Part shown: positions 1,874 through 20,179 of the stretch, one piece after another
How positions within the stretch are numbered: the stretch's first letter is position 1
Layout of the letters: each line of letters opens with the position of its first letter
Origin: Candidatus Iainarchaeum sp.
GTDB lineage: Archaea > Iainarchaeota > Iainarchaeia > Iainarchaeales > JACQJH01
Assembly: GCA_016205145.1 (NCBI GenBank)
Contig: JACQJH010000002.1
Location: 1-32,000 of the forward strand
Reading direction: 5' to 3'
DNA length: 32,000 nucleotides
Program-made: the position numbers and the translations under genes
The notes under the pieces: model-generated
What the model was told of the DNA's origin: nothing
Database searches by the model: none
The model's input: only the letters and a program-made list of their open reading frames with translations

Positions 1874-1899
1874 CCTTTCCGCATTGTTTGTGTCGGCTT

Positions 1900-2841
1900 A
1901 TGCCAGCGCAAACACATGCAAACGATTTTCTTGTCGGCTTGGTCAAACTGCTCCGGCCGCTTGAATGGAGCAAGGGCTTCGGCAACATGGCCGTTGCGGC
2001 AATCATTGCAAGCTATGCTTTCGGCGTCCAGCCAAGCATTCCGCTTTTTCTCGCCGGCTTTCTGGCGGTTTCGATGCTTTGGTCGGGCCTCTATGCATTG
2101 AACGACTGGACCGACCGGGAGGCGGACAAACTGCATCCCGTCAAGAAAAACAGGCCTATTCCTTCGGGCGCAATTCCGGCTGGCTTTGCATTGGGCCTTG
2201 CGGTCGTTTTGATTTTGTCCGCGCTGGCGATCGGCTTTTCCCTGGGAATGCTTTTTTTCATCTGCCTGCTTGCAATGCTGTTGAACCAGCTGCTCTACAC
2301 CCTTGAACCGTTTTCGTTCAAGAAGCGCGCGGTAGTAGATTTGATTTCAGGTTCCGCAATCAACCCGGTTTTCAGGTTTTATGCCGGCTGGGTCCTCCTG
2401 GTTCCGGCATTCAATGCGCCTTTGCCGGCATTGCTTTTTGTTGTCGGCGTGCAGTTCGGCGGGTTCACCCTGTACAGGCTGACTTCGCATTCCGTCGAGG
2501 AAAAGCTCGGCTATAAAAGCTCGGCAACTGTTTTCGGCGAAGGCAAAGTGAAGGCATTGGCATACCTTGCGATTGTTTCGAGCGGCGCTTCGTATTTTTT
2601 GATGGCGCTGAATGGCGGCGGCTTTCTGGATTTTTGGAACGTTGCAGGCGCGGCCAATGATTTGGGCTTTTTGCCGTTCAAATTCTTCTGGCTCGGCGTT
2701 CTTTCGCTGCTTGCCCTGCCATTGTATGCGAACGTTCTGCTTAACCCGAAAAAGGCGGACATAAGCAAGGTTTATGTTCTTGTTTACCTGAATTATATCG
2801 TGTTTGTCGGCGGCATGATTGTGCTGTTTTTCTGGCAATGA
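1900..2841 (+). CDS. UbiA-family prenyltransferase, resembling polyprenyl-phosphate phosphoribosyltransferase (DPPR-synthase type)
   Basis: First Asp-rich motif NDWTDREADKLHPVKKNRPIPSG (ND..D...D..HP.K..RPI..G). Multi-TM hydrophobic profile. RPLEWSKG near the N-terminus. ATG at 1900 preferred over TTG at 1888. Confidence 0.8.
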   Translation: MPAQTHANDFLVGLVKLLRPLEWSKGFGNMAVAAIIASYAFGVQPSIPLFLAGFLAVSMLWSGLYALNDWTDREADKLHPVKKNRPIPSGAIPAGFALGLAVVLILSALAIGFSLGMLFFICLLAMLLNQLLYTLEPFSFKKRAVVDLISGSAINPVFRFYAGWVLLVPAFNAPLPALLFVVGVQFGGFTLYRLTSHSVEEKLGYKSSATVFGEGKVKALAYLAIVSSGASYFLMALNGGGFLDFWNVAGAANDLGFLPFKFFWLGVLSLLALPLYANVLLNPKKADISKVYVLVYLNYIVFVGGMIVLFFWQ

Positions 2842-2853
2842 ATTTCGTTTTCA

Positions 2854-3606
2854 ATGAATTTTGTTCCGGATGGTGTTTTTGTTTTGGCCCGCAAGCCGGT
2901 TGTTTCCGTCATAATCCCGACGCTGAACGAGGCGAAGTTCATCGAGCGGTGCATTTCTTCTTTTCAAACCCAGTCGGTTCCAAGACATGATTTTGAAATA
3001 ATCGTGAGCGACAGCTCAAGCAACGACAATACCGCTGAAATTGCCCGCAAAATTGCCGACAGGGTTGTCGTCTGCGAAAGGATGAGCGCAACTCACGGCA
3101 GGAACGAGGGCGCAAAGCTTGCAAGCGGAAAATTCCTTGTTTTTGTCGACGCCGACACGGTTGTCGGAAAGCATTTCATTGAAGGCGTGGTTTGGGCGCT
3201 TGAAAAAGGAATTGCCGCGACCGGCCCGATTTTCGCGCTTGAAAAGGATTCATTGCGCATGAGGCTTTTTCTCCAGTACTGGAGTTTTCAGTCGCTTGTT
3301 TCCACTGCAATCGGCTTCCCGATTTTTCCCGGCTTCAATTTTGCCGTGCGCAGAAACGTGTTTGAAAAGGCCGGCGGCTTCCAGGAGAAAAGGACGGGCG
3401 AGGACATTGACCTTTCATTGCGCCTTGCAAGGCTTGGAAAAACCGTTTTCAGCGAAAACATGGTTGTGTTCACTTCCACGCGCAGGCTGAAGGAACAGGG
3501 CATAATCAAGTATGCGTTCAACGGTTTCACTTACATTTTTTTCGGGAAAAGCGTGCCATGGCACGAATACAGGAAGGATTTTGTCCCGCGGGGTGAGCGC
3601 AGATGA
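2854..3606 (+). CDS. Family 2 glycosyltransferase
   Basis: VSVIIPTLNE start of a GT-A fold, SDSSSNDNT, and the DxD-type motif VFVDADT. Confidence 0.85.
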   Translation: MNFVPDGVFVLARKPVVSVIIPTLNEAKFIERCISSFQTQSVPRHDFEIIVSDSSSNDNTAEIARKIADRVVVCERMSATHGRNEGAKLASGKFLVFVDADTVVGKHFIEGVVWALEKGIAATGPIFALEKDSLRMRLFLQYWSFQSLVSTAIGFPIFPGFNFAVRRNVFEKAGGFQEKRTGEDIDLSLRLARLGKTVFSENMVVFTSTRRLKEQGIIKYAFNGFTYIFFGKSVPWHEYRKDFVPRGERR

Positions 3607-4598
3607 AAGTGCTTTTCGTGGTTTCGACTGCAAAGGACAGCGGCATTTTCACTTCCGCTAACGCCCTGGCGGAAAAACTGCGTGAAAAAGGCGTCGAGGT
3701 TGAAATCGACAACCTTCTTGGCAATGGCTATGACCTGGTGCATTTCCACAATCCTCTGCCGACAACGTTTTTTGCGGCACGCATCAAGTTCCTGAACCTG
3801 CCGTTCGTCTGCACGACAAACATGACAATAACCGAGCTGGACGGCCTCGTTCCAAACTATCTGTTCGGCCTGTCAAACCAGTATCTGCAGTTTTATTACT
3901 CGCACTGCGACAGGATAATCTGCACTTCGAGAAAAATCGAGGCGTTGCTCGGAGTTGAAGGATTTGCGTCCAAAACGGTTTTCATGCCGCTCGGCATCGA
4001 CAACTCCTTTTTCCGGCCGAAACCTGAACTGGGCGGAATTTTCCGGCAGCGTTTCGGCCTGAAGCGAAAGGTTGTTTTGGCGGTTGCGTCCGCGCAGAAG
4101 CGCAAGGGCATTTTTGATTTTGTCGAAGTTTCAAAGGCGTTGCCGCAGTACGATTTTGTCTGGGTCGGGGGAATCCCGCAATTGCAGACGCTTGAAAAAA
4201 GGGCGGAGCTTGAAAAAATCGTGGCGGAAAAATATGACAACCTGGTTTTCACGGGCTATCTTTCTTTGGACGAGCTTCTGCAGGCGTACAATGCCTGCGA
4301 TGTCTTTGTTTCGCCTACGTATGCGGAAACTTTTGGTTTGAACATAGTGGAGGCGGCCAGCTGCGGAAAACCCGCAATAGTGCGCGATTTGCCGGACCTG
4401 GACAACTTTGACCCGTTTGCCCTGAAGTTTTCCGACAACGAGGGCTTTGCAAGGCAGGTCTGCGCTGTCATGGAAGATGAAAGCCTGCGGAACGGCCTGT
4501 CGGAGAAGTCGCTTAAGGAATCCGCGAAGTTCAGCCTTGAGGCTAACTCGCAGAAAATCCTTGAAATCTACGAACGGCTTGTGCAAGGAAAAAATTGA
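3603..4598 (+). CDS. GT-B glycosyltransferase (family 4-like)
   Basis: C-terminal ETFGLNIVEAASCGKPAIV motif typical of GT4. ATGA overlap with the GT2 stop implies translational coupling. Confidence 0.85.
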   Translation: MKVLFVVSTAKDSGIFTSANALAEKLREKGVEVEIDNLLGNGYDLVHFHNPLPTTFFAARIKFLNLPFVCTTNMTITELDGLVPNYLFGLSNQYLQFYYSHCDRIICTSRKIEALLGVEGFASKTVFMPLGIDNSFFRPKPELGGIFRQRFGLKRKVVLAVASAQKRKGIFDFVEVSKALPQYDFVWVGGIPQLQTLEKRAELEKIVAEKYDNLVFTGYLSLDELLQAYNACDVFVSPTYAETFGLNIVEAASCGKPAIVRDLPDLDNFDPFALKFSDNEGFARQVCAVMEDESLRNGLSEKSLKESAKFSLEANSQKILEIYERLVQGKN

Positions 4599-7572: not shown

Positions 7573-7833
7573 TGCCGGAAAACTTGGTTTTTTTGCATAA
7601 AAAATGCGTTTGGAAAGCAAATTATTTTGGCACAATTTATTAGCATAATTAACGTTAAATTTTTTGGCACATGGTTTTAATTCGGAATCCAAAATTTTTA
7701 TTTTTTCAAATTTTGTTTTCTGATTTTTTATGTTTCGTGTAAAAAGGTTTTTATATGCCGGGCGGCTCTATTGTATGCCGGCATTTTTCAGCCGTTTGTT
7801 GTTGTTTTGCATTATTTTTAGCGGGGGGTCTTC

Positions 7834-10509
7834 ATGGCGCAGGCAGGGTTCTCGGAAATCAGGAAAAGGAACGGTGACATAGCCAAGTTTTCCAAGAAGA
7901 AGATTGTCCTTGCAATCTGGAAGGCCGCGCAGGTCGTCGGCGGGAAGGACAGAGGCCTTGCAGACAGGCTTGCCGATCTTGTCATTGATGAACTGAACTC
8001 GAAATTTGACGAGAAAAGCCCCCCGAATGTCGAGCAGGTGCAGGACTGCGTCGAAAAGGTGCTCATGACATCCGGGCACGCCAAAACCGCGAAGGCATTC
8101 ATACTTTACAGGCAGGCGCGCGCCGAAATAAGGAAGGAAAAAATGGTCGTCCTCGAAAAGGAGGAGATCGACGAGGTTGACAAGCGCTTCGACCTGAATG
8201 CATTGAAGGTTCTGAAGGCGCGCTACCTGCGCAGAAGCGAGGAAGGCAAGCTTGTCGAGGCCCCGAAACAGCTTTTCACGCGCGTTGCCGTGCACGTCGC
8301 CCTGCCGGACATGCTTTACGACGAAAAGGTTTTTGACAAAACCGCGAAGCAGAAAGCGCATCCAGCCGAAGAATTCGATTGCGCCGCAAACGACGGGAAA
8401 TTTTCGGTCGGCATGTTCAAGCTCAACCAGTTTCATTTGGAGGGATTCAAGCGCCTTTTCGACAGGCTTAACATGGAGAAAAAGATGGTTCTGCCCTGGC
8501 ATGAAATCCTGAAACTGCTTGAATCGGGTTATTTCGACAAGTTCGAAGGAAACATTTCGGAATTCTACGATCTCATGACTCTGAAAAAGTTTTTGCCCAA
8601 TACTCCGGCAATCGCGAATTTTGGAAATCCTTTGGGCATGGGTTCGGCCTGCTTTGTCCTGGATGTTCCGGATTCGCTTGAAGATATAATGGAGACGCTG
8701 AAGAATACCGCGCTTGTCTTCAAGTCCGGCGGCGGCATGGGCTACAATTTTTCCAAGCTCAGGCCGGAAGGCGATTTCGTTTCCACGACATCCGGAATTG
8801 CATCCGGGCCTCTTTCGTTCATGCGCCTGTTTGATACAATGACTGAAGTCATAAAGCAGGGCGGCATAAGGCGCGGTGCAAACATGGGCATCCTGAACAG
8901 CAACCATCCCGACGTCGAAAAGTTCATTGTGGCAAAGAAGGGCAACATGGCCTTGCGCAATTTCAACATTTCCGTGCTGATAATGCCGGATTTCTGGGGC
9001 TATTATGAGAGGAACGAGCCTTATCCGCTTGTCAACCCGCGCACGGGTGAAGTGCTGAGGCACGTCAATCCGAGAATGCTTTTCGACATGATAGTTTACC
9101 AGGCTTGGGAGTCGGCCGAGCCGGGCGTGATTTTCTTCGACCACGTCAACGAGTTCAACCCGTTTTTCGCGCATCTTGGACCGATCGTAACGACAAACCC
9201 GTGCGGCGAAGTGCTCTTGTACCCTAACGAGCCGTGCAATCTCGGCAGCGTGAATGTCTGGGCCTTCGCAAAAGAGGACGAGGAAGGCAAGGTTTTCTTC
9301 GACTGGGATGAAATGGCGGGCATTGTCCGGCTTTCGACAAGGTTTTTGGACAACGTCATTGACATCAACAACTGGCCTTTGCCGCAGATCGAGGAAATGG
9401 CGTTGAACACGCGGAAAATCGGATTGGGCGTAATGGGCTTCGGCGATTTGCTGTATGAAATCTCGATAAGATATGATTCCGAGGACGGCAGGGCTTTCAT
9501 GGAGCGGCTGATGGAAGCGGTCAACTATCATTCCAAGCTTGAATCCGTTGCCCTTGCAAAGTCAAGGGGCGCACTGCCGTATTTCAACAAGAGCTTCTAC
9601 CCTGAAGGCAGGCTTCCGTTCAGCGGCAGCGTTGAAAAGGACAAATGGCACTTTGACTGGAACGAGGTTTCAGAAAAAGTCAAGTCGGATGGCATCCGCA
9701 ACGGTTACACCACGATTATCGCGCCGACCGGCAGCATTTCAATGATTGCCGGCTGCAGTTCGGGCATGGAACCGGTTTTCAGCCTGGTCTTTGAAAAAAA
9801 CGTCAAGGTCGGAAGCTTTTACTATGTGGACCCGGTCTTTGAAAAGGCGATGAAAAAGGAAGGCCTCTACGACGAAAAGCTCATGGAGCAGGTTTCCGAA
9901 AACGGCGGAATGCTGCATGACATTCCCTACATTCCGGAGCATTTGAAGGAAGTCTTCGTTACGGCAAGGGAAGTTTCGCCCGAAAACCACATCAGGGCGC
10001 TCGCGGCATTCCAGAAATGGACCGATTCCTCGATTTCAAAGACTAACAACTTTCCGGCCGACGCAACAGTGGATGACATGCGCATGTCATATCTGCTTGC
10101 CTATAAGCTCGGCTGCAAGGATGTCACAGTTTTCAGGGACTCGTCCATAATGGACCAGGTTCTTGTCGCGCCGATAAAAAAGGCGGAAAAAAAGGAATCG
10201 CCTGCGCTCCAGCCGGCGCACAAGCCATCGCATGAAACCGCAAACGCCGTGCCCGAAGAAAAGGGCTCTTTGAAGCTTGAGATGAAGGCAGTCGAGGCAA
10301 TCGCCGTTCCGAAGAAAAAAGTCGAATTCATTCCCAACACGACCATTCCAAAATTCACTTTCGAGGACATTTCAAGGCACGGAAAACAGCAGAAGGACAT
10401 TGCGTTTTCCAAAGCCGAGCTCAAGGACTGCCCCGAATGCAGCAATGCCTTGCAGTTCAAGGAAGGCTGCCTGACGTGCCCGGATTGCGGTTGGGGACTT
10501 TGCAAGTAG
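7834..10509 (+). CDS. nrdJ: Class II (adenosylcobalamin-dependent) ribonucleotide reductase with N-terminal ATP-cone and C-terminal zinc ribbon
   Basis: ATP-cone (IRKRNGDIAKFSKKKIVLAI). Active-site region TTNPCGEVLLYPNEPCNLGSVN. C-terminal CPEC...CPDC ribbon after a roughly 110-aa K/E/P-rich linker. GGGGGGT SD-like element 5 nt upstream of the ATG. Confidence 0.92.
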   Translation: MAQAGFSEIRKRNGDIAKFSKKKIVLAIWKAAQVVGGKDRGLADRLADLVIDELNSKFDEKSPPNVEQVQDCVEKVLMTSGHAKTAKAFILYRQARAEIRKEKMVVLEKEEIDEVDKRFDLNALKVLKARYLRRSEEGKLVEAPKQLFTRVAVHVALPDMLYDEKVFDKTAKQKAHPAEEFDCAANDGKFSVGMFKLNQFHLEGFKRLFDRLNMEKKMVLPWHEILKLLESGYFDKFEGNISEFYDLMTLKKFLPNTPAIANFGNPLGMGSACFVLDVPDSLEDIMETLKNTALVFKSGGGMGYNFSKLRPEGDFVSTTSGIASGPLSFMRLFDTMTEVIKQGGIRRGANMGILNSNHPDVEKFIVAKKGNMALRNFNISVLIMPDFWGYYERNEPYPLVNPRTGEVLRHVNPRMLFDMIVYQAWESAEPGVIFFDHVNEFNPFFAHLGPIVTTNPCGEVLLYPNEPCNLGSVNVWAFAKEDEEGKVFFDWDEMAGIVRLSTRFLDNVIDINNWPLPQIEEMALNTRKIGLGVMGFGDLLYEISIRYDSEDGRAFMERLMEAVNYHSKLESVALAKSRGALPYFNKSFYPEGRLPFSGSVEKDKWHFDWNEVSEKVKSDGIRNGYTTIIAPTGSISMIAGCSSGMEPVFSLVFEKNVKVGSFYYVDPVFEKAMKKEGLYDEKLMEQVSENGGMLHDIPYIPEHLKEVFVTAREVSPENHIRALAAFQKWTDSSISKTNNFPADATVDDMRMSYLLAYKLGCKDVTVFRDSSIMDQVLVAPIKKAEKKESPALQPAHKPSHETANAVPEEKGSLKLEMKAVEAIAVPKKKVEFIPNTTIPKFTFEDISRHGKQQKDIAFSKAELKDCPECSNALQFKEGCLTCPDCGWGLCK

Positions 10510-10580
10510 CTCGGCGATTTCGTCCGCCGGGTCCGACGACGGGTACACCGCTGTTGCGCTGTACCCATCTGCACTGATGG

Positions 10581-11156
10581 ATGCTGATGAAAGAAAAAAA
10601 TAATTCCGGTTTCGGCCTGGTTCAGGTTTTTTGGGGCAACGGGAAAGGAAAGACGACTGCCGCGTTGGGCACCGCGCTCAGGGCGATTGCGCTCGGCAAA
10701 AGGGTTTTGCTCGTGCAGTTCTTGAAGGCGGGCGTTGAAAAACAGCCCGGCCTGAATTCAAGCGGTGAAGTCGAATTGCTGCAGAAGTTTCCCAATTTTT
10801 TTGTGAAGCGCTTCGGCACCGGCGACTGGTTTTTTTCAAGGCACAAGGACAACCTTGAAGGGCATAAGCGGGAAGCATTGCTGGCGTTGAAGGAAGCCTG
10901 TGCAAACATTTCTTCCGGCGAATTCGACCTTGTTGTTTTGGACGAAGTGCTTTACGCGGTTTCTTTCGGCCTGCTTTCCGAAAAGCAGTTGCTTGAAGAG
11001 CTTGCGAAAAAGGCGCCGGGCACGGAAGTCATCCTGACCGGCAGCCACAAAAAGCTGGCAAAAATCGAGGCTGCCGCTGACCTGGTCACGGAAATAAGAA
11101 AAGTCAAGCACCCTTTCGACAGGGGCGTGCTGGCGAGAAAAGGCCTTGACTATTAA
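10581..11156 (+). CDS. cobO: Cob(I)yrinic acid a,c-diamide / cob(I)alamin adenosyltransferase (CobA/CobO/BtuR type)
   Basis: VQVFWGNGKGKTTAALGTALRA P-loop and LVQFLK, VLDEV, THPFD-like KHPFDRG motifs characteristic of the family. Confidence 0.85.
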   Translation: MLMKEKNNSGFGLVQVFWGNGKGKTTAALGTALRAIALGKRVLLVQFLKAGVEKQPGLNSSGEVELLQKFPNFFVKRFGTGDWFFSRHKDNLEGHKREALLALKEACANISSGEFDLVVLDEVLYAVSFGLLSEKQLLEELAKKAPGTEVILTGSHKKLAKIEAAADLVTEIRKVKHPFDRGVLARKGLDY

Positions 11157-11172
11157 GCTGGTCGGAATCGAA

Positions 11173-11574
11173 TCAGTTCACGACTGACACTGTTGCCGCG
11201 TAACCGGCTGAAGGGTAGTAAGAAGGATAATAGTAGTATGCGGGGTAAGTGTAATAGTAAAACGCATAATACGGGTAATAGTATGGGTAAGCGTATGGCA
11301 GGTAAGTGTTGTACGCATACCGGTATGCCGGCACGTACGTTGTGACCGGAACAACCATTGCCGGCTGGGGCGCAGGATAATAAGCCGGGTAGTATTGTGC
11401 CGCATAGCCGCCTCCATGAAAGCAATTGTAACCGTAACAGCCGCCGGGTTCGCGCTGGTAGCTTACGCTCCAGTCATCGCCGCCGAACTCGACATAGTTT
11501 ACCCTTGCAAAGGCGGGGCCTGCAAAAAAAGCCAAAAAAAGAATTGCCGTCAGAAGTGGAACGGTTTTACCCAA
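11173..11574 (-). CDS. Secreted, extremely Tyr/Pro-rich small protein, function unknown
   Basis: TTG start preceded by GGTGG. Signal peptide MGKTVPLLTAILFLAFFAGPAFA. By my hand count, 32 Tyr in about 110 mature residues, with runs such as PYAYPYYYPYYAFYYYTYPAYYYYPSYYP. Confidence 0.6.
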   Translation of the reverse strand: MGKTVPLLTAILFLAFFAGPAFARVNYVEFGGDDWSVSYQREPGGCYGYNCFHGGGYAAQYYPAYYPAPQPAMVVPVTTYVPAYRYAYNTYLPYAYPYYYPYYAFYYYTYPAYYYYPSYYPSAGYAATVSVVN

Positions 11575-11744
11575 ACAACCACCAATAACTTGTTTAAGTA
11601 AATGAATTATTGCGGGTTTGTTTTTTAAACCCGACTTTCAGCGTTCAGGCAAGGCGGTTTTGGCATTCAACTATGCCGTGCTTGACTTTTGGCCGGCCGC
11701 TTTCAAGCCCGAATAGGCCTGCCGAAGGAAAATTCCGCTTGCTT

Positions 11745-13133
11745 TCAGCAGTTTCCTCCGCCGTCAAACTGCTTCCAGTTCGCGCCATTGCAGTAGCATG
11801 GCTCGTTGAGGCTGTTGTCTGCATAGACACTGCCTTCCGCGCCAGCATTGCACGTGCCCGGCGCGTCGGTCGGCGTCAATTTCATCACGCCTGAAATTTC
11901 AAGCTTTTGGGTTGGGTTTGCCGTGCCGATTCCGACGTTGCCGCTTGTGTTGATGCGCAGTGTGTCAGTCTGCCTCCATGTGTCGCGTATGGCGAATGAG
12001 CCGTCGTTGGTGACTGCGCCGGTGTCTGGTGCATTGCCGCCGGGGCCATTGGTTCGTCCGGCACCGATGGACCAGAACCTGCTTCCTTCGGCTATGTACA
12101 TTTGTCCGCCTATCGTGAGCTTGGCTTTGGGAGTGTAACCGATTCCGACGTTGCCGCTTGTGTTGATGCGCAGTGCGTCAGTCTGCCTCCATGTGTCGCG
12201 TATGGCGAATGAGCCGCTGTTGTCTATGGCGCCGGTGTCCGTGGCATTTCCGCCCGGGCCGTTGGTGCGTCCGGTGCCTATAGACCAGAACCTGTTTCCT
12301 TCGGCTATGTACATCTGTCCGCCTACCGTGAGCTTGGCTTTGGGAGTGTAACCGATTCCGACGTTGCCGTTAACAAAGAGGCTGCCGTCGGTTCTCAGCG
12401 TGTTCGCCGCCGAGCGATAGAGTTTTGTGTCCGTGCCGAAGAGCAGTCCTGCGGCCGTGCTTGCCGTTGGAAGCTGGAGCTGTCCCGCGGAAGTCAAAGC
12501 CATTTTCACGCCATCATACGCGCCCGCGTCGGTATAATGGTGGATGTTAAGCGCATCAGACGCCGAATTGTAGGCAAACCCCCATTTCAATGCGGATAAA
12601 TTAGTATTGTAAAATTCAAATCCCGCATTCGTTGCGGCGGGAACATTGAACCGAAGTCCTGCGCCGTATATCAGGCCATCGGTTGCCAGGGAATCTGCCG
12701 CAAAAATGCTGCCCTCGGTTTTCAGGGTGTTCGGCGCGGAACGGTATAGCCTGACATCCGTGTCGTTGAGGCTTGCCGCGCTGATTGCACTGAGGCTTGA
12801 AGGCGTTTTTGTCCTTGGAGACATTTCCGCGTCGTTGTCAATGGATATTCCGAGCCAGTGTTCCTGCGAAAAATCGATTGCCTTGAGCGAATTCGCGTCG
12901 CCGAGCATTGCGGAAAAATATCCGTCGCTCACGCTGATTGTCTGGGTTTCACGCCACAGCAATGAGCCTGCGGATGGCTGGGAATAGATTGAAAATGCTA
13001 CGGAATGGCTTCCCGAAACCGGGTTTCCGAGAACGTCCAAAAGCCTTCCGTTGAACGGAATGGACGAGTTTGATGCGTTCACCGGCAGCAAGAGCGCCAG
13101 GAACAGTATTCCAATCCAGACAATTTGCTTCAT
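11745..13133 (-). CDS. Secreted tail-fibre-like repeat protein
   Basis: Signal peptide MKQIVWIGILFLALLLPVNA. N-terminal FNGRLLDVLGNPVSGSHSVAFSIYS...LWRETQTISVSDGYFS module. LYRSA(A/P)NTL(K/R)T(E/D)GS and NVGIG(Y/T) motifs, as seen in phage tail-fibre-like proteins. Two 71-aa tandem repeats. Cys-containing C-terminal knob CNAGAEGSVYADNSLNEPCYCNGANWKQF. Confidence 0.8.
   Translation of the reverse strand: MKQIVWIGILFLALLLPVNASNSSIPFNGRLLDVLGNPVSGSHSVAFSIYSQPSAGSLLWRETQTISVSDGYFSAMLGDANSLKAIDFSQEHWLGISIDNDAEMSPRTKTPSSLSAISAASLNDTDVRLYRSAPNTLKTEGSIFAADSLATDGLIYGAGLRFNVPAATNAGFEFYNTNLSALKWGFAYNSASDALNIHHYTDAGAYDGVKMALTSAGQLQLPTASTAAGLLFGTDTKLYRSAANTLRTDGSLFVNGNVGIGYTPKAKLTVGGQMYIAEGNRFWSIGTGRTNGPGGNATDTGAIDNSGSFAIRDTWRQTDALRINTSGNVGIGYTPKAKLTIGGQMYIAEGSRFWSIGAGRTNGPGGNAPDTGAVTNDGSFAIRDTWRQTDTLRINTSGNVGIGTANPTQKLEISGVMKLTPTDAPGTCNAGAEGSVYADNSLNEPCYCNGANWKQFDGGGNC
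11926..12351 (-). repeat. In-frame tandem duplication, 2 x 213 bp (71 aa), with the first ~18 nt of a third unit
   Basis: Units start at 11926, 12139 and 12352 (ccgattccgacgttgcc...). The two peptide copies differ at 8 of 71 positions by hand comparison. Confidence 0.9.
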
Positions 13134-13140
13134 TTTTCAT

Positions 13141-13146
13141 GCCTCC
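13141..13146 (-). promoter_or_regulatory. Shine-Dalgarno-like GGAGGC for the tail-fibre-like gene
   Basis: Plus-strand gcctcc lies 7 nt upstream of the minus-strand ATG (13131-13133). Only 44 nt separate it from the protease stop, suggesting co-transcription. Confidence 0.5.
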
Positions 13147-13177
13147 ATAAAAGCCAATAAATCATTCATAAGCATTC

Positions 13178-16100
13178 TCATGTTTTTGCCTGCTCTTCCC
13201 CCACTGAAACAACCGGCAGATCGTACACCGCCGGCTGGGCCCTGAAATTGTCGAAGTATGCGTTGCCGCTTCCGTTGTAGCCCCTTGCCCCTATCCTCGC
13301 GATTGTTTTCGCGGAAACGGTTTGGTTCAACAGCGAAGCCAAAAGGCTTGTTCCTGTCTCGTTCCAGATGAAATAATTCATGCTTGTCCCGCCGTTCGCA
13401 TAATCCATTGCAGCAAGGTAGTTCGTGTTTGCGCTTGGCATGTTTCCGCCGTCATTCATGTTCGCCCAATTCCCGCCGGTATTAGCCAAAAATTTGTTGT
13501 CGCCTATTCCAAGGCATCTCATGCACAGCGCGGTATCGCTTGCGCCCATTAGGTCGACAAGCGAGCCGTTGGAAATGCCGTCAGCCTGGATGGCGTAAGA
13601 ATACCTGTGCCGTTTGCCGTCAGGCATGCTTGGAATGCTTTGCTTGTACGCATTTGACGAGTTCTGCAAATTTGCGGAATACGCGCCGGAAATTTTCTGG
13701 ATCGCGGTTATGGAGCCGTCGCCCAGAGTCCAGTCGCTTACGTAGGCGTCCTCGAAGTCAAGCCAGTACGAGTAAATTTTTCGCATGTCGGACGGCGGGC
13801 TTGAAGCCGAGGGATTGCCGTAATAGATTGCGAGCACGCCGTCGTAATTGGTGTTTGCCTGCCATGCGGACTTCAATTGCACCACGACTTTTGTGCTTGC
13901 GGTATTGCATCCGGCAACTTGCCTGTCAAGCTCGATGTGCAGGTTTTCGTCGTACACGCGCAAATCGTCGCAGCCCGTCTGCATCTTTCCCGCCGCCACA
14001 AGGCTTTGCGTGTCAAGCGTTATCTCCTCTTGCATCGTGGTTTCGCTCAAGTCCGAAAAGGTGTAGTTTGCGTCCAAGGCTTCCGATTTCACAGAGACAA
14101 AAATCGGCTTTTTATAAGAATAGGCGGCGTTTTCCCATCCGCTGTAAACGCCCCTGAACGTTTGCAGTACAACGCTGAACGGCGCGAGCAAAAAGCTCTG
14201 GCTCGACACCTGCGGCATGGAACCGCCCACCGAAAAGCTGAGCGAAAAATTCGGGCTTCCAGCAATATGCTCAAAGCCCCTTTCAACGCTTGGCGGCGGC
14301 TTTGGCGGCGCAACATATCTGCCAGTATGCCCTGTGTCATGGCCGAACATTGGCCAAGGCATGTTCGCCGCGTTGTAGTCGCCGTCAAGGTCCCAGGCAT
14401 AGATTGAGCCGCGGTGCTTGGATTCCTGGTTGAAAAAATCGTAGTCGTCCTTGTATCCTGCGATAAGCTCGACTTTTCCGTCATTGTCAATGTCGTCGAC
14501 AATCGGTGCGGGGCTGTACCTTATGGATTTTTCAGGATACGTGCCGACCGGATGTTTTTGGCCCTCAATGCCTTTGGGAAATCCGTTCACACTGCTTCCG
14601 TCCGTGTTCCACGCGTAAATTCCGCCGTGGCTTTCCTTGTTGGGCTGGAACGCATTGCCCGCTGAAACCAGTATTTCAGGCGCATTGTCGGAATCAATGT
14701 CCGCCATTATCACGCCGTAATTTGCGTTCCAGTTGATTTCCTGCGGCCAGCCTGAAACCGTTTCGCCGTTTGCGCGCAGCAAATGCGTTTTCGGCTGCCC
14801 CGCATAATAATTATAATTGCTTGTTGCGGCGATTTCCAGGAAACCATCATGGTCAATGTCCCCCAACGCGGGGGTTGCCTCAAAGGACAATCCTTTCAGC
14901 ACGGGCCAGCCCGGAACAAGGCTTCCGTTTGCATCGAAAGCGTATATGCCGCCATAATCTGTACTGTAATTGTACCATTCGCCCGCGTTTCTGCCCATCG
15001 CACCGACAACTATTTCCAAATTGCCGTCATTATCAATATCTCCAACTGATGGCGATGCGAATATTGCGCTTGGTATGCTGACAGGCCAACCGTCCACGAC
15101 CGAGCCGTCCATGTTGTAAACGTAAATGGCGCCCGAATCAGAGTATTCGCTGTCGCCGGTTTGCTGTGCCGAAACTATTTCCAGTTCAGGATCATCATCA
15201 AAGTTTCCGACCGCAGGATAAGATTGGATTTTTGCGACGTTGCCCGCAAAAGGGTTCTGCGGCAAATCCCATGACGCGCGAATCGTGCCATTGCCGTCTA
15301 TGACAAGCATCTGTTCTGTTCCACCAACGCCTACATTTCCTTCAGGCCAGTTTCCCTTGACTATTATCTCGTCCGCGCCGTCATTGTCAAGATCGGCAAG
15401 CGTTATCGTATATTTATAATCTGTAGGCAATGGGATGTAATAATTGCCTGAAGACTGCCAAAATTTAAGGTCACCTACATTATTAAGTACGGACAGATAG
15501 CTGTTTGAGGCAACCACGATTTCCTTGTTTCCGTCCCCATCAATGTCGCCTATTGTCGGGATTGTCTGCGGGTAATCGTAAACATATCCCGACCACAACA
15601 AGGAACCATCATTTTTGAATGCTAGAATTTGAGCATTATCGACATAAGCAGTGATTATTTCCTTGTTTCCGTCATTCGTCAAATCCGCAACAACCGGTTC
15701 GAACAAGCCGCCGACAATGTACACGTCCCAAGGCGCATAATAATACCAGCCGTATTTGACAGGCCATCCTTTTTTCAGTGTCGGGTCCAGATAAACGTGG
15801 AAAATGTTTTCGTCGACGTTTCCCTGTGGCCTTTCAAGCGTGATTTTCATGTCGTACCATCCTGAAAGGCCCGAAGTGTCCCAAGTCGCCAACGTGCCAT
15901 TTTCAACAGGCTGCAGGCCATTGTTTGCAAGCGAAATGCCTGAATTGGACCACGTGGCATTCGGGTCCGTGGCGAAATTGAAATCGGGGCTTGCCGCGAA
16001 TTCTATCGTGTAGCCGTTGAAATTTCCGAGAACACTGCCGTTTATGTCAATAACATCGCCCGCCCTGAAAATGTCGTTGTTCAGCGGGCTTGTTGTTTTG

Positions 16101-18067
16101 ATGTTGTTCACAGTGAAGCCGCCGTATTCGGTTGTCTGTTGCCCATTTGCGTTTACGACCAATTTCAAGCCATAATCGCCGTTTACTGTATTCGCCGCGT
16201 CAAAATCGAACGTGCAGAGCAGGCCTTCCTCCGGAACCTGGCTTGAGCCGTTGCAGATTGTCTGCCACGGATCTGTTTCGTTTAAGTGGTAGTAAAGCGT
16301 GTACCCGCTGAAATTGTCGCCTGTCGCCGTGCCAAGAATGTTTGCAGTCGTGTCATTCAATGGCTGAAACGAATGTATTTCCGCGATCGGGGGCGCTCCG
16401 CTCAGCGATGCCGCAGCAAGAACGTCAATTCTTCCGTGGCCCTGAGTGTTCATCGGTTCGCCGATGTCAACGGCGGTATTCTGCAGCGCCATTTTAATTT
16501 CATCCGGCGACCAGCCAGGGTATTTTTGTTTTAAAAGTGCGGCGGCACCCGCTACAACGGGCGCTGAAGCGCTTGTGCCGCTGAAGGAACTATGTTTGCC
16601 GTCGTTAAAATAAGGAATACAATTATATGGCCCCCCGTCACCCGACCATTTTGCCACACAAATATTCACGCCTACTGCCACAACGTCAGGTTTGACAAGA
16701 TATTGATCGTAGCCATTCGAGTCAATCCATTTCACGGGCCCCCTTGATGAAAACGACGCAATTTCATCGTCTTTCCATGTTGCGCCGGCTGAAATGATCT
16801 TTCGACCCATCCCTGGGCTTGTCATTGATTCAGGGGAAGACCCGGCATTTCCTGCTGAAACAACCGCTACAACTCCTGCCCTGACTATATTATCGAATGC
16901 CTGGTTTTGCGTGTCATCGGGGTTTCCATTGCCCCCGAAACTATAATTTACCACGTCCAAATGGTCATCGAAGTTTCCGTCATTGTCCGGGTCAAGCGCC
17001 CAGTCAAGGGCTTCTATGACATCGCTCAAATATGCGCTGCCCTGGCTGTTCCCGACCTTTAGCGCGTAAAGTGTTGCGTCGCGCGCGACACCATTTAAGT
17101 CATAGCTTTCGTATCCCCCGTTTCCGGCGACAACAGATGCGACCAGCGTTCCATGCCCCTGGTCATCCATCGGGTCGTTATCCTCGTTAACAAAATCGTA
17201 TCCGCCAGCGACCTTTGCGCACAAGCCGTCCGTAAACTGCTGGGTCGTGCAGTTCCCGAAATCGTCGTGCGTGTAATCGATGCCCGTGTCCATTATTCCG
17301 ACCTTCACGCCTTTTCCCGTAATGCATTCCTTTCCGCTGGACGCGCATTGCCCGCCATCAATGTCAAGTGCCCAAACGTCATCCGCGTTGATTATTGGAA
17401 TGGTTTGAAAAAGCTGCATCTGGCTTTTCGTGTTCGGCGTGACAGATTTCACTCCGGGCAAATCCAGAATTTTTTCCGCGTCCTCTTGTGAAATGTCCAG
17501 TGCGATGCCGTTGAATGTTTTCGAGTATTCGCCTAAAATTGCGAGCGTCGGCGTGCCAAGGGTGCTTTGCGCGCTGATTTCCGCCAGGGTTTTTGGGGTT
17601 TCGCTGTTTTTGCTTAACGCGTTCAAAATGCCCGTTTTTGCCTGTTCGTGCTGGGATTCGATTTTTTGCGCGTGCAGTCTGAGTTCCGCCCCGATATCGG
17701 TTGTCCTGGCGCTTGCGGCGTTAAAAATTTCCGGATTTTCCGACGCGGTCGCATTGGCAAAAAGCTCTTCGGCGTTTTCGTTCGCTTCCTTCAGTTCCGC
17801 ATACTTCACTGCCAGCGGCGCCTCGTAGAATTCGACAATGAATCCGTTTGCGCCTTCAATGTTTTCATTCGGCCCCGGGCCGCCTGATTCCTGGCGCAAG
17901 GCAAAACCTGCGCCAGTAAGCGTATCCTGATTCGGATTTGCATCCGGAAAATCCGGTTCCTGTCCCTGTGCAACCACCGGGTTTGGCACGGCAAAGGCCA
18001 AGAAAAGAAAGAAAAGAACGAAACAAGGTAACAAGGTTCTTTTCAGGCTTGAGGCCATCCGATGCAA
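13178..18067 (-). CDS. Giant secreted subtilisin-like (S8) protease fused to an FG-GAP/VCBS beta-propeller region, a DUF2341-like domain and a LamG/ConA-like domain
   Basis: Signal peptide (LLPCFVLFFLFLAFAVPNPVVA). I9-like propeptide (FIVEFYEAPLAVKY). Catalytic D260 (GIMDTGID, nt 17288-17290), H305 (HGTLVAS) and S499 (GTSASAP). Eight DxDxDG-type repeats between aa ~795 and 1200 (DIDGDGNKEIVV, DLDNDGADEIIV, DIDNDGNLEIVV, and others), closed by WPMFGHDTGHTGRY. CDDLRVYDENLHIELDRQV...LAIYYGNPSA is DUF2341-like. No C-terminal TM anchor seen. Confidence 0.9.
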   Translation of the reverse strand: MHRMASSLKRTLLPCFVLFFLFLAFAVPNPVVAQGQEPDFPDANPNQDTLTGAGFALRQESGGPGPNENIEGANGFIVEFYEAPLAVKYAELKEANENAEELFANATASENPEIFNAASARTTDIGAELRLHAQKIESQHEQAKTGILNALSKNSETPKTLAEISAQSTLGTPTLAILGEYSKTFNGIALDISQEDAEKILDLPGVKSVTPNTKSQMQLFQTIPIINADDVWALDIDGGQCASSGKECITGKGVKVGIMDTGIDYTHDDFGNCTTQQFTDGLCAKVAGGYDFVNEDNDPMDDQGHGTLVASVVAGNGGYESYDLNGVARDATLYALKVGNSQGSAYLSDVIEALDWALDPDNDGNFDDHLDVVNYSFGGNGNPDDTQNQAFDNIVRAGVVAVVSAGNAGSSPESMTSPGMGRKIISAGATWKDDEIASFSSRGPVKWIDSNGYDQYLVKPDVVAVGVNICVAKWSGDGGPYNCIPYFNDGKHSSFSGTSASAPVVAGAAALLKQKYPGWSPDEIKMALQNTAVDIGEPMNTQGHGRIDVLAAASLSGAPPIAEIHSFQPLNDTTANILGTATGDNFSGYTLYYHLNETDPWQTICNGSSQVPEEGLLCTFDFDAANTVNGDYGLKLVVNANGQQTTEYGGFTVNNIKTTSPLNNDIFRAGDVIDINGSVLGNFNGYTIEFAASPDFNFATDPNATWSNSGISLANNGLQPVENGTLATWDTSGLSGWYDMKITLERPQGNVDENIFHVYLDPTLKKGWPVKYGWYYYAPWDVYIVGGLFEPVVADLTNDGNKEIITAYVDNAQILAFKNDGSLLWSGYVYDYPQTIPTIGDIDGDGNKEIVVASNSYLSVLNNVGDLKFWQSSGNYYIPLPTDYKYTITLADLDNDGADEIIVKGNWPEGNVGVGGTEQMLVIDGNGTIRASWDLPQNPFAGNVAKIQSYPAVGNFDDDPELEIVSAQQTGDSEYSDSGAIYVYNMDGSVVDGWPVSIPSAIFASPSVGDIDNDGNLEIVVGAMGRNAGEWYNYSTDYGGIYAFDANGSLVPGWPVLKGLSFEATPALGDIDHDGFLEIAATSNYNYYAGQPKTHLLRANGETVSGWPQEINWNANYGVIMADIDSDNAPEILVSAGNAFQPNKESHGGIYAWNTDGSSVNGFPKGIEGQKHPVGTYPEKSIRYSPAPIVDDIDNDGKVELIAGYKDDYDFFNQESKHRGSIYAWDLDGDYNAANMPWPMFGHDTGHTGRYVAPPKPPPSVERGFEHIAGSPNFSLSFSVGGSMPQVSSQSFLLAPFSVVLQTFRGVYSGWENAAYSYKKPIFVSVKSEALDANYTFSDLSETTMQEEITLDTQSLVAAGKMQTGCDDLRVYDENLHIELDRQVAGCNTASTKVVVQLKSAWQANTNYDGVLAIYYGNPSASSPPSDMRKIYSYWLDFEDAYVSDWTLGDGSITAIQKISGAYSANLQNSSNAYKQSIPSMPDGKRHRYSYAIQADGISNGSLVDLMGASDTALCMRCLGIGDNKFLANTGGNWANMNDGGNMPSANTNYLAAMDYANGGTSMNYFIWNETGTSLLASLLNQTVSAKTIARIGARGYNGSGNAYFDNFRAQPAVYDLPVVSVGEEQAKT

Positions 18068-18149
18068 TATATGCGTAAAACGTCAATAAAAATGTTGTGA
18101 CCATCCACAATTTCGTCTATTGACGAAGCGAAATTTCTGCCGGTTTTGG

Positions 18150-19504: not shown

Positions 19505-20179
19505 TCACCGTGGCTCTTGTCGGTTGCGGGCGGAACTGTCACGGCGGTTTCTCTGTTGCCTGCCCTTTCCGGCTTGCCGGTGATAATAGCCTCCCGCGCC
19601 TGCGACATTTTCAGACGTGGAAAGGCCGCTTTCAATGCGCGCATGTTCAATTGGCAGGCCAAGGCCGTGAACAAGGTGTTCCAAATTCCTTGGCACGCAA
19701 ACCTCTTCGGTTTCCCCGAAGGCCATGATTCGGAGATCCTTTGAATCGAAGCCGAAGCCGTTCTTCTGCAACGCTTCCTTTACATGCCGCGGGTTAAGCT
19801 GGATGCCTGCAGGCAAAACAACGAGCCTGTCGCCAAGCTGGGCCTTTGCAAATTCGAGGAGCCTTGAAGACCTTTTTTGCGCATCGCTTCCCGGAATGTA
19901 TTCAAACGGCAGAATCACAAGCATGGCGGCATGATTTTCCCTTATCCGCATTATGCGCCGCCCCCAAAGGGCGTTTATTGCCGACCATCCGCGCTTCACC
20001 CGCCTTAATGCGCGCCTGTCTTCCCGCGCCAGCACGCCAAGCCAGTCCTGGTGGGAATTTTCAAGTGTTGTTGGTTCGTTGGTGAGATTCCATGCGGTGC
20101 CGACATGATATTCGGGGTGGACCAGAAGGTGTATTTCGCTTATTTGCCGCAACGGCACACGCCCGGGCTGTTGGCTCAT
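19505..20179 (-). CDS. Hypothetical alpha/beta protein embedded between thrB and thrC
   Basis: The only long ORF in the interval. Its ATG overlaps the thrB stop (ttATGAgcc), so the track ORF from 20338 was trimmed. Alternating strand/helix-like segments (IHLLVHPEY, AMLVILPFEY, RLVVLPAG, LRIMAFGETEEVCV). The basic, low-complexity C-terminal tail of about 45 aa looks disordered. No family recognised. Confidence 0.5.
   Translation of the reverse strand: MSQQPGRVPLRQISEIHLLVHPEYHVGTAWNLTNEPTTLENSHQDWLGVLAREDRRALRRVKRGWSAINALWGRRIMRIRENHAAMLVILPFEYIPGSDAQKRSSRLLEFAKAQLGDRLVVLPAGIQLNPRHVKEALQKNGFGFDSKDLRIMAFGETEEVCVPRNLEHLVHGLGLPIEHARIESGLSTSENVAGAGGYYHRQAGKGRQQRNRRDSSARNRQEPR

Follow-up and report, generated by a model that had tools for sequence, protein, structure and literature searches.

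Three adjacent genes for predicted exported proteins in a Diapherotrites archaeon probably form a lineage-specific cluster that includes a distant relative of Bdellovibrio MAT fibres

Do three consecutive genes for putative surface proteins in an archaeal genome encode a single apparatus, or do they form a local cluster? This question is raised by a 32,000-nucleotide (nt) stretch of DNA from Candidatus Iainarchaeum sp. (positions 1 to 32,000 of contig JACQJH010000002.1, assembly GCA_016205145.1), which we refer to as the window. An initial annotation, based on sequence, had described in this window a secreted surface module consisting of a giant protease/propeller protein, a tail-fibre-like protein and a tyrosine-rich protein, here A, B and C. 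The three open reading frames (ORFs) lie on the minus strand exactly as described, are separated by spacers of 44 nt (A-B) and 170 nt (B-C), and the second is preceded by GGAGG. The three genes are as follows.

13178..18067, minus strand: gene A, an ORF of 1629 amino acids (aa) from a TTG start, for a predicted secreted multidomain subtilase
11745..13133, minus strand: gene B, an ORF of 462 aa from an ATG start, for a predicted secreted mosaic fibre resembling mosaic adhesive trimer (MAT) fibres
11173..11574, minus strand: gene C, an ORF of 133 aa from a TTG start, for a predicted secreted orphan protein rich in Tyr, Pro and Ala

Protein A is 100% identical to MBI4053016.1, annotated as [quoted passage not shown], and the suggestion that the DNA derives from a small-genome archaeon fits with this assignment to the DPANN archaea (Diapherotrites, Parvarchaeota, Aenigmarchaeota, Nanoarchaeota and Nanohaloarchaeota). 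With a probability of roughly 0.7, we interpret the locus as a cluster that is specific to this lineage and comprises three genes for exported surface or extracellular proteins, and not as a dedicated multi-gene machine. Judged by sequence, each of the two large components (A and B) belongs to an already populous family, and the pairing of A with B is local and not conserved.

To analyze conservation of the trio, one genome per GTDB species was scanned with an A-family profile. The scan yielded 80 loci, each with flanks of up to 10 kb, and the loci of the three closest A homologues were added for a total of 83 A-relative loci. Among these, 25 have the full architecture of S8 protease and propeller, and 20 of the 25 include at least 1.5 kb downstream. 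By tblastn, phmmer with B and C, and phmmer with 120 relatives of B, no B or C homologue was detected next to the protease gene at any of the 83 loci, among them the 20 with the full architecture and ≥1.5 kb of downstream sequence. At one locus (L066), a weak B-family match is located in a small ORF on the opposite strand approximately 5 kb from the S8 gene. B as a single query detected no relative among the metagenome contigs, and loci sharing its C-terminal tip were recovered using a narrow alignment of the tip only. At the 18 metagenome loci that share the tip, no neighbour is A-like or rich in Tyr, and a downstream partner conserved among these fibre loci was not detected. These data do not bear out a three-gene module or apparatus, because neither the A-B nor the A-C adjacency is conserved in the relatives. 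We note that the contig of the A homologue P0124 (L091) contains, at 9890-13661, a second S8 protease of 1081 aa with a NosD domain directly followed by an ORF of 164 aa that weakly matches the fibre family (E=1.3e-7 to P0023) and weakly resembles the MAT N-domain. This is the sole other juxtaposition of an S8 gene and a fibre-like gene.

Two points weigh against the reading that the cluster is purely local. First, the synteny check that the initial annotation had called for came out in favor of linkage for one pair, since the B-C adjacency is kept in L084, the one close relative found (86% nt identity) and the only locus in which it is kept. In L084, a fibre gene with the same tip is followed by an approximately 93% identical spacer, a homologue of C and then a different gene, which indicates linkage of B and C in a narrow lineage and recombination inside B, and nothing more. 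Second, the sampled relatives of A are all distant (≤47% identity), and none is an orthologue from a second Diapherotrites genome, so that the trio may be conserved within the genus or family.

Gene B encodes what we consider the most noteworthy element of the locus, that is, a candidate MAT-type fibre in an archaeon. The following segments of B, and the repeat that encodes its shaft, were distinguished.

aa 1-20: signal peptide, predicted from hydropathy and an AxA-like site
aa ~25-115: N-terminal beta-sandwich domain, modelled by AlphaFold2 (AF2) with a predicted local distance difference test score (pLDDT) >90
aa 118-250: middle segment, poorly modelled by AF2
aa 251-393: shaft, consisting of two 71-aa repeats
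aa 394-462: C-terminal tip with four Cys residues, comprising the last 69 residues
11926..12369, minus strand: 213-nt tandem repeat with 2.1 copies that are 90% identical, encoding the shaft repeats

B contains no Pfam domain. Residues 11-83 match the NCBIfam model NF053851 (Bdello_MAT_N) with E-values of 8.7e-7 and 2e-7, and all 20 aligned relatives of the N-terminal domain match the same model with a best E-value of 2.6e-13. The shaft matches the Bdellovibrio MAT fibre Bd2133 (PDB 8OND) in three repeat stretches (phmmer E=7.9e-5), and 9 of the 11 best Foldseek matches of the B model are Bdellovibrio MAT fibres (Bd2133, Bd3182 and Bd1334). Two observations speak against this assignment: B scores 29-31 bits with NF053851 compared to the curated cut-off of 60 bits, and the structural model is a monomer with a predicted template modelling score (pTM) of 0.33 and low Foldseek TM-scores. 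The low TM-scores arise because a monomer model was set against chains of trimers. Altogether, the sequence argues that the N-domain of B is homologous to the MAT N-domain and that B is a distant relative of these fibres and not a member of the curated family.

As in the non-S74 MAT fibres of Bdellovibrio bacteriovorus, exemplified by Bd2133, a predicted signal peptide in B is combined with an N-domain that matches NF053851; the shaft has the motif GNVGIGT-x-P-x-x-KL-x-V found in Bd2133, with which it aligns by sequence and fold; and B shares with MAT fibres a small, independently folding C-terminal tip that is exchanged between otherwise different fibres. B differs from the Bdellovibrio fibres in being 462 aa long compared to ~1,000 aa, in having a 4-Cys tip that is not among the six solved MAT tip folds, and in being produced by an archaeon without an outer membrane. 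MAT fibres serve prey recognition in Bdellovibrio, where docking on the cell surface is presumed to be the function of their conserved N-domain (Caulton et al. 2024, PMC10769870). Because the archaeal producer has no outer membrane, the docking partner of the B N-domain would have to differ from that in Bdellovibrio. We propose that B would act as a trimeric adhesin similar in kind to Bdellovibrio MAT fibres or phage tail fibres, in which the N-domain would dock on the surface of the producer, the beta-helical shaft of 71-aa repeats would project the tip, and the small, disulfide-bonded tip would bind a ligand. If B is displayed in this manner, the range of MAT/tail-fibre adhesins, whose characterization has so far been restricted to a predatory bacterium, would also include archaea with a completely different envelope, and B would offer a specific candidate for the means by which ultra-small archaea attach to surfaces or partners.

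The modular build of B is evident from its relatives. B has at least 826 homologues, and its four modules are common to different subsets of these, giving a patchwork coverage, while the tip is 55-69% identical to the tips of otherwise unrelated fibres. The named sources of the homologues include Omnitrophota, Zixibacteria, Latescibacteria, Margulisbacteria and one Woesearchaeota archaeon. A similar chimeric module pattern has been described for MAT fibres (PMC10769870), and we suggest that the tip and shaft modules of B would be swapped between lineages by recombination. Between near relatives, the swap can be seen within the gene. Positions 2-646 of L084 correspond to 11745-12400 of the window and encode the same tip (94% aa identity) and the last repeat, but the L084 fibre has a different module in place of the first repeat of B. 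This is direct evidence for module shuffling within the fibre gene.

The repeat also affects how the length of B is to be read. In independent assemblies the gene is interrupted here: contig L001 ends after B residue 264, and contigs L086-L088 begin with the last 69 residues. Because three independent Logan assemblies break within the tandem repeat, the repeat copy number in the metagenome-assembled genome, and hence the length of B, may not be reliable. In an exact-sequence look-up, neither the full B protein nor the NCBI version of A was on record; B is on record solely as fragments because the assemblies break in its repeat.

The likeness of B to tail fibres, which the initial annotation had pointed out and which is supported by the matches to the MAT_N model, Bd2133, PHROG families and Foldseek targets, could also mean that B, possibly together with C, is a stranded remnant of a virus or tailocin consisting of a tail-fibre gene and a small accessory or assembly gene. 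Phage fibre genes often precede a small assembly gene, and B matches two PHROG tail-fibre families (9942 and 18345) with E-values of 5e-13 and 6e-6. The shaft repeat motif and the mosaic evolution of the distal part are shared between B and phage tail fibres of these families and of the Peptidase_S74-terminated kind, and many relatives of B end in the phage-type Peptidase_S74 chaperone domain. B itself is of the non-S74 type, and, unlike phage tail fibres, it has no virion-attachment domain, no S74 chaperone and no viral neighbours; instead, it has a predicted Sec-type signal peptide and a cellular MAT-like N-domain. A tblastn search with B against 50,697 phage genomes gave nothing at E≤1e-5, no other viral gene is present in the 32-kb window, and the neighbours of B are housekeeping genes. 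Moreover, the signal peptide and low-complexity sequence of C are unlike those of known tail-fibre assembly proteins, and a conserved downstream partner was absent from the 18 tip-sharing loci. We, therefore, regard a viral origin of this gene pair as very improbable and favor a cellular MAT-like fibre.

Gene A, in turn, encodes a protein in which we distinguished the following regions.

aa 1-33: signal peptide, predicted from hydropathy and an AxA-like site
aa 137-216: I9 propeptide (Pfam PF05922, 29.3 bits; cut-off 21.2)
aa 251-545: S8 catalytic domain (Pfam PF00082, 185.7 bits; cut-off 21.8)
aa ~560-790: unassigned, beta-rich linker between the S8 domain and the propeller
aa ~795-1250: FG-GAP propeller, with Pfam repeats at ~800-1210
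aa ~1365-1447: DUF2341-like domain, a sub-threshold Pfam match
aa ~1450-1620: putative jelly roll resembling concanavalin A (ConA) and LamG domains, from an AF2 model and Foldseek

The S8 protease and the Ca-binding FG-GAP propeller named in the initial annotation both score above the Pfam cut-offs. Residues D260 (in DTG), H305 (in HGT) and S499 (in GTS) as well as the oxyanion residue N407 are invariant in a family alignment of 26 sequences; because the triad and the oxyanion Asn are invariant, the protease should be active. FG-GAP_3 (PF13517) matches in six stretches with 77.6-90 bits, above its cut-off, and PF01839 matches with 49 bits. Eight Ca-type motifs of the form D-x-D/N-x-D-G..E-I, spanning aa 795-1201, are located at aa 795, 841, 892, 955, 1010, 1070, 1123 and 1192. 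The assignment of DUF2341 and LamG domains to the C-terminal part is reasonable and not proven. PF10102 (DUF2341) scores 21.9 bits, just under the gathering cut-off of 23.4, and A has no Pfam LamG match. An exhaustive search identified 1,128 relatives of the C-terminal module, which is often present in several copies within giant proteins that reach 5,866 aa, and which has the common motif block W-x-YR...DTASL-x-x-GKM-x-x-DC-x-D-x-R...YYGN. Because these 1,128 relatives carry the motif block, the domain is likely homologous to DUF2341 despite its sub-threshold score. The AF2 model of the tail (12-sequence input, pLDDT 63) has a beta-sandwich followed by a jelly roll, for which the best Foldseek matches are legume lectins, CBM22, the binding domain of botulinum neurotoxin (BoNT) and thrombospondin C-terminal domains. 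With E-values of 4e-5 to 2e-2 and TM-scores up to ~0.5 for a mediocre model, these matches suggest a ConA-like lectin fold.

Based on this architecture, A would be exported by the Sec system as a pro-subtilase, in which the I9 propeptide folds and then frees the active D-H-S protease. The Ca2+-binding propeller and the DUF2341/ConA-like tail would most likely direct the protease to surfaces or substrates that are glycosylated, where it would probably serve to degrade extracellular proteins, to scavenge peptides or to remodel surfaces.

The combination of S8, I9 and FG-GAP domains is present in >1,100 homologues in bacteria of the candidate phyla radiation (CPR) and DPANN archaea. Named hosts are Buchananbacteria, Vogelbacteria and Parcubacteria, on the one hand, and Pacearchaeota, Woesearchaeota, Aenigmatarchaeota and Nanoarchaeota, on the other; the genome scan recovered the family in Pacearchaeota, Woesearchaeota, Nanoarchaeota and CPR phyla. 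The closest non-self homologue of A is P0122 of Candidatus Buchananbacteria (on contig L092), with 44% identity over 72% of A. The intermixing of CPR and DPANN sequences in this family suggests inter-domain transfer among ultra-small groundwater organisms. Related subtilases, such as A3B15_02015 of Buchananbacteria, share with A the succession I9-S8-linker-propeller and have 31-44% identity over ~75% of A. The conserved core of the family ends at approximately aa 1251, at a WP-x-F-x-HD motif (~aa 1238-1251). Residues 1252-1629 are an add-on of A's own, with the DUF2341-like and ConA-like domains, while other family members have different C-terminal add-ons (CARDB, MopE, LamG_3, dockerin, PKD and others). 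The joining of subtilisin and FG-GAP domains has reportedly been catalogued already in surveys of prokaryotic proteases, and we found no functional study of the S8-propeller family in the literature searched. Type VII secretion system (T7SS) mycosin, CspBA, IteS and other named S8 subfamilies were considered for A and rejected, as all scored far under their curated cut-offs.

A conceptual parallel to A is provided by the SPEARE proteins of Nanohaloarchaeota, which have been proposed to act on the host surface (Hamm et al. 2019, PMC6642349). Like A with its putative LamG-like tail, they are DPANN surface proteins that join a serine-protease region and laminin-G-type adhesion domains. However, SPEARE proteins have 3,000-8,500 aa, are anchored by a transmembrane helix and have in the cytoplasm a type III restriction-enzyme region that is their most conserved part (PMC6642349), all of which A lacks: its sole hydrophobic segment is N-terminal, and scans of domain libraries detected no nuclease domain. 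The parallel concerns protease-plus-LamG surface proteins in DPANN archaea.

Gene C encodes a protein with 24% Tyr, 13.5% Ala, 11% Pro and two Cys residues. Among 5.8 billion proteins, its only relatives are itself and one cluster (P0242) with 80% identity. A comparison of the two sequences gave 81 identical codons, 23 synonymous and 18 non-synonymous codon changes and four indels, all of them in frame, and the TTG start is kept. The in-frame indels, the pattern of codon changes and the retained start support that C is a real gene and, by this sequence evidence, a fast-evolving orphan under purifying selection. As for its function, our guess is that C is a secreted aromatic structural or adhesive protein. 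In the proposed scheme it would be a Tyr-rich, low-complexity component of a structural or adhesive matrix, expressed from its own promoter.

Each of the three proteins has exactly one hydrophobic segment in Kyte-Doolittle analysis. In all three, this segment is N-terminal, with a basic residue before it and an AxA-like site after it (VVA|QG in A, VNA|SN in B and AFA|RV in C), and a further hydrophobic segment, C-terminal or other, was not detected in any of them. A fair reading of these sequences is that A, B and C would be exported without a membrane anchor, in agreement with the initial annotation. A reservation about this reading is that the signal peptides and their cleavage were deduced from hydropathy and the AxA sites alone. 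A lipobox or an archaeosortase-type anchor was ruled out for the three proteins, as they have no C-terminal hydrophobic segment; the Cys residue in the signal peptide of A is part of the hydrophobic core and does not form a lipobox.

Candidate expression signals were noted upstream of gene A and in the two spacers. The TATA-like boxes and T-runs were picked by eye or using regular expressions and are weak evidence.

18085..18092, minus strand: TATA-like TTTTTATT, located 27-34 nt ahead of the ATG at 18058, read from the sequence
13142..13146, minus strand: GGAGG Shine-Dalgarno sequence, 8 nt upstream of the gene B ATG, within the A-B spacer
11575..11744, minus strand: B-C intergenic region with a T4 run, a TATA-like box and GGTGG
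11621-11629, minus strand: TATA-like TTTAAAAAA, 55 nt upstream of gene C

The independent Logan gene calls start gene A at the ATG at 18058, giving a protein of 1626 aa, and this is probably the true start. TTTTTATT would then be a candidate archaeal TATA box and promoter of gene A, with a leaderless or short-leader mRNA. The T4 run is located 13 nt past the stop codon of gene B, and GGTGG 5 nt ahead of the gene C TTG. From the TATA-like elements and the Shine-Dalgarno pattern at the spacers, we infer that A and B lie on one transcript and C on a separate one. Co-transcription of A and B, as initially suggested, is plausible given that the 44-nt spacer has a Shine-Dalgarno sequence before B and no TATA-like element detectable by eye or regular expression. 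The B-C spacer is ~93% identical to positions 647-822 of L084, whereas the flanking coding DNA is only ~86% identical, and promoter or regulatory sites are a possible explanation for the extra conservation. The spacer contains small hairpins without a significant fold, and an RNA element was rejected (fold z=-0.43; no Rfam match at E≤1).

The adjacency and probable co-transcription of A and B would also be expected if A were a dedicated maturation protease that trims or activates B and/or C after export, and B, being of the non-S74 type, has no autoproteolytic S74 domain of its own. Against this stands that the A-B adjacency was conserved in no other genome sampled and that the A family is far more widespread than the A-B pairing. 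Also, the non-S74 MAT tips of Bdellovibrio fold independently and without strand swapping (PMC10769870). We consider such a role for A improbable, although less so than the viral remnant.

Another explanation, already raised in the initial annotation, is that the trio is a functional host- or partner-contact module. In such a module, B would bind the surface of the partner, A, directed by propeller and lectin domains, would open the S-layer or wall of the partner, and C would provide an adhesive matrix, with a logic analogous to that of the nanohaloarchaeal SPEARE proteins or of the Bdellovibrio MAT fibres at the invasion pole. The export signals predicted by hydropathy in all three products are in agreement with this possibility, and so is the 44-nt A-B spacer with its Shine-Dalgarno sequence and no TATA-like element. 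In L084, the B-C adjacency and the highly conserved spacer persist even though the downstream neighbour differs, and in L091 the ORF after an S8 gene is small and shows a weak likeness to the MAT N-domain. From the literature, MAT fibres act in prey recognition in Bdellovibrio (PMC10769870), and a combination of protease and LamG adhesion domains has been proposed for DPANN host interaction (PMC6642349). On the other hand, an adjacent homologue of B or C was found at 0 of the 83 A-relative loci and an A-like or Tyr-rich neighbour at 0 of the 18 B-tip loci, C is confined to one close lineage, and the locus has no anchor, pore or transfer component. The surroundings of the cluster are dominated by the biosynthesis of amino acids and cofactors: one flank has genes for thiamine biosynthesis, ribonucleotide reductase and corrinoid adenosyltransferase; the other has genes for threonine synthase, homoserine kinase, PdxS/PdxT, MgtE, Nramp, cation antiporters and chorismate synthase. 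The nearby genes for biosynthesis of Thr, thiamine, pyridoxal phosphate (PLP) and chorismate point to a lineage that depends less on a host than most DPANN archaea do, and a capacity for autonomous growth has been argued for Diapherotrites (work cited in PMC6642349). Based on these considerations, a contact module is unlikely, but it is the least unlikely of the alternatives to a lineage-specific cluster.

Slightly less likely still is the specific scenario in which a DPANN archaeon recognizes a partner cell using a bacterial-type MAT fibre that is co-transcribed with a subtilase targeted by lectin and propeller domains and followed by a lineage-specific, Tyr-rich adhesive protein. If true, the fibre would be an archaeal counterpart of the prey-recognition fibres of Bdellovibrio, the MAT N-domain would have a docking site different from the outer membrane of Gram-negative cells, and an adhesin toolkit would move between CPR bacteria, predatory bacteria and DPANN archaea. 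In the literature on DPANN archaea with tail fibre, FG-GAP or tyrosine-rich proteins, we found no description of this combination. With the preferred reading of a lineage-specific cluster, the value of the trio lies in pointing to two under-studied families of surface proteins and not in a new apparatus.

The same locus is present in three Logan assemblies, and the sequencing runs SRR12113383-85 contain this population. The 32-kb window contains no phage, secretion-system or pilus genes and no tRNA or Rfam family. At its start, an ORF at 15-1190 on the plus strand has a DDE_Tnp_1 transposase domain (E=3.7e-18), and the first kilobase has a G+C content of 40% compared to ~52% elsewhere; this ORF is probably an insertion sequence. 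Long antisense ORFs were also observed: one of 587 aa at 7768-9531 on the minus strand lies opposite the ribonucleotide reductase gene, and several of 100-200 aa lie opposite parts of gene A. Most likely, all of these are compositional artefacts rather than genes. A putative further exported protein is encoded by an ORF of 188 aa at 1275-1841 on the minus strand, which has no Pfam domain but a lipoprotein-like N-terminus (MKTKILACMVLLFALTVFAAGC...) and adjoins genes for a UbiA prenyltransferase and a glycosyltransferase (1888-4598). Finally, an ORF of 224 aa at 19505-20179 on the minus strand, without a Pfam match, is located between the genes for homoserine kinase and threonine synthase; it overlaps the end of thrB by 4 nt and is called as a gene in three Logan assemblies.

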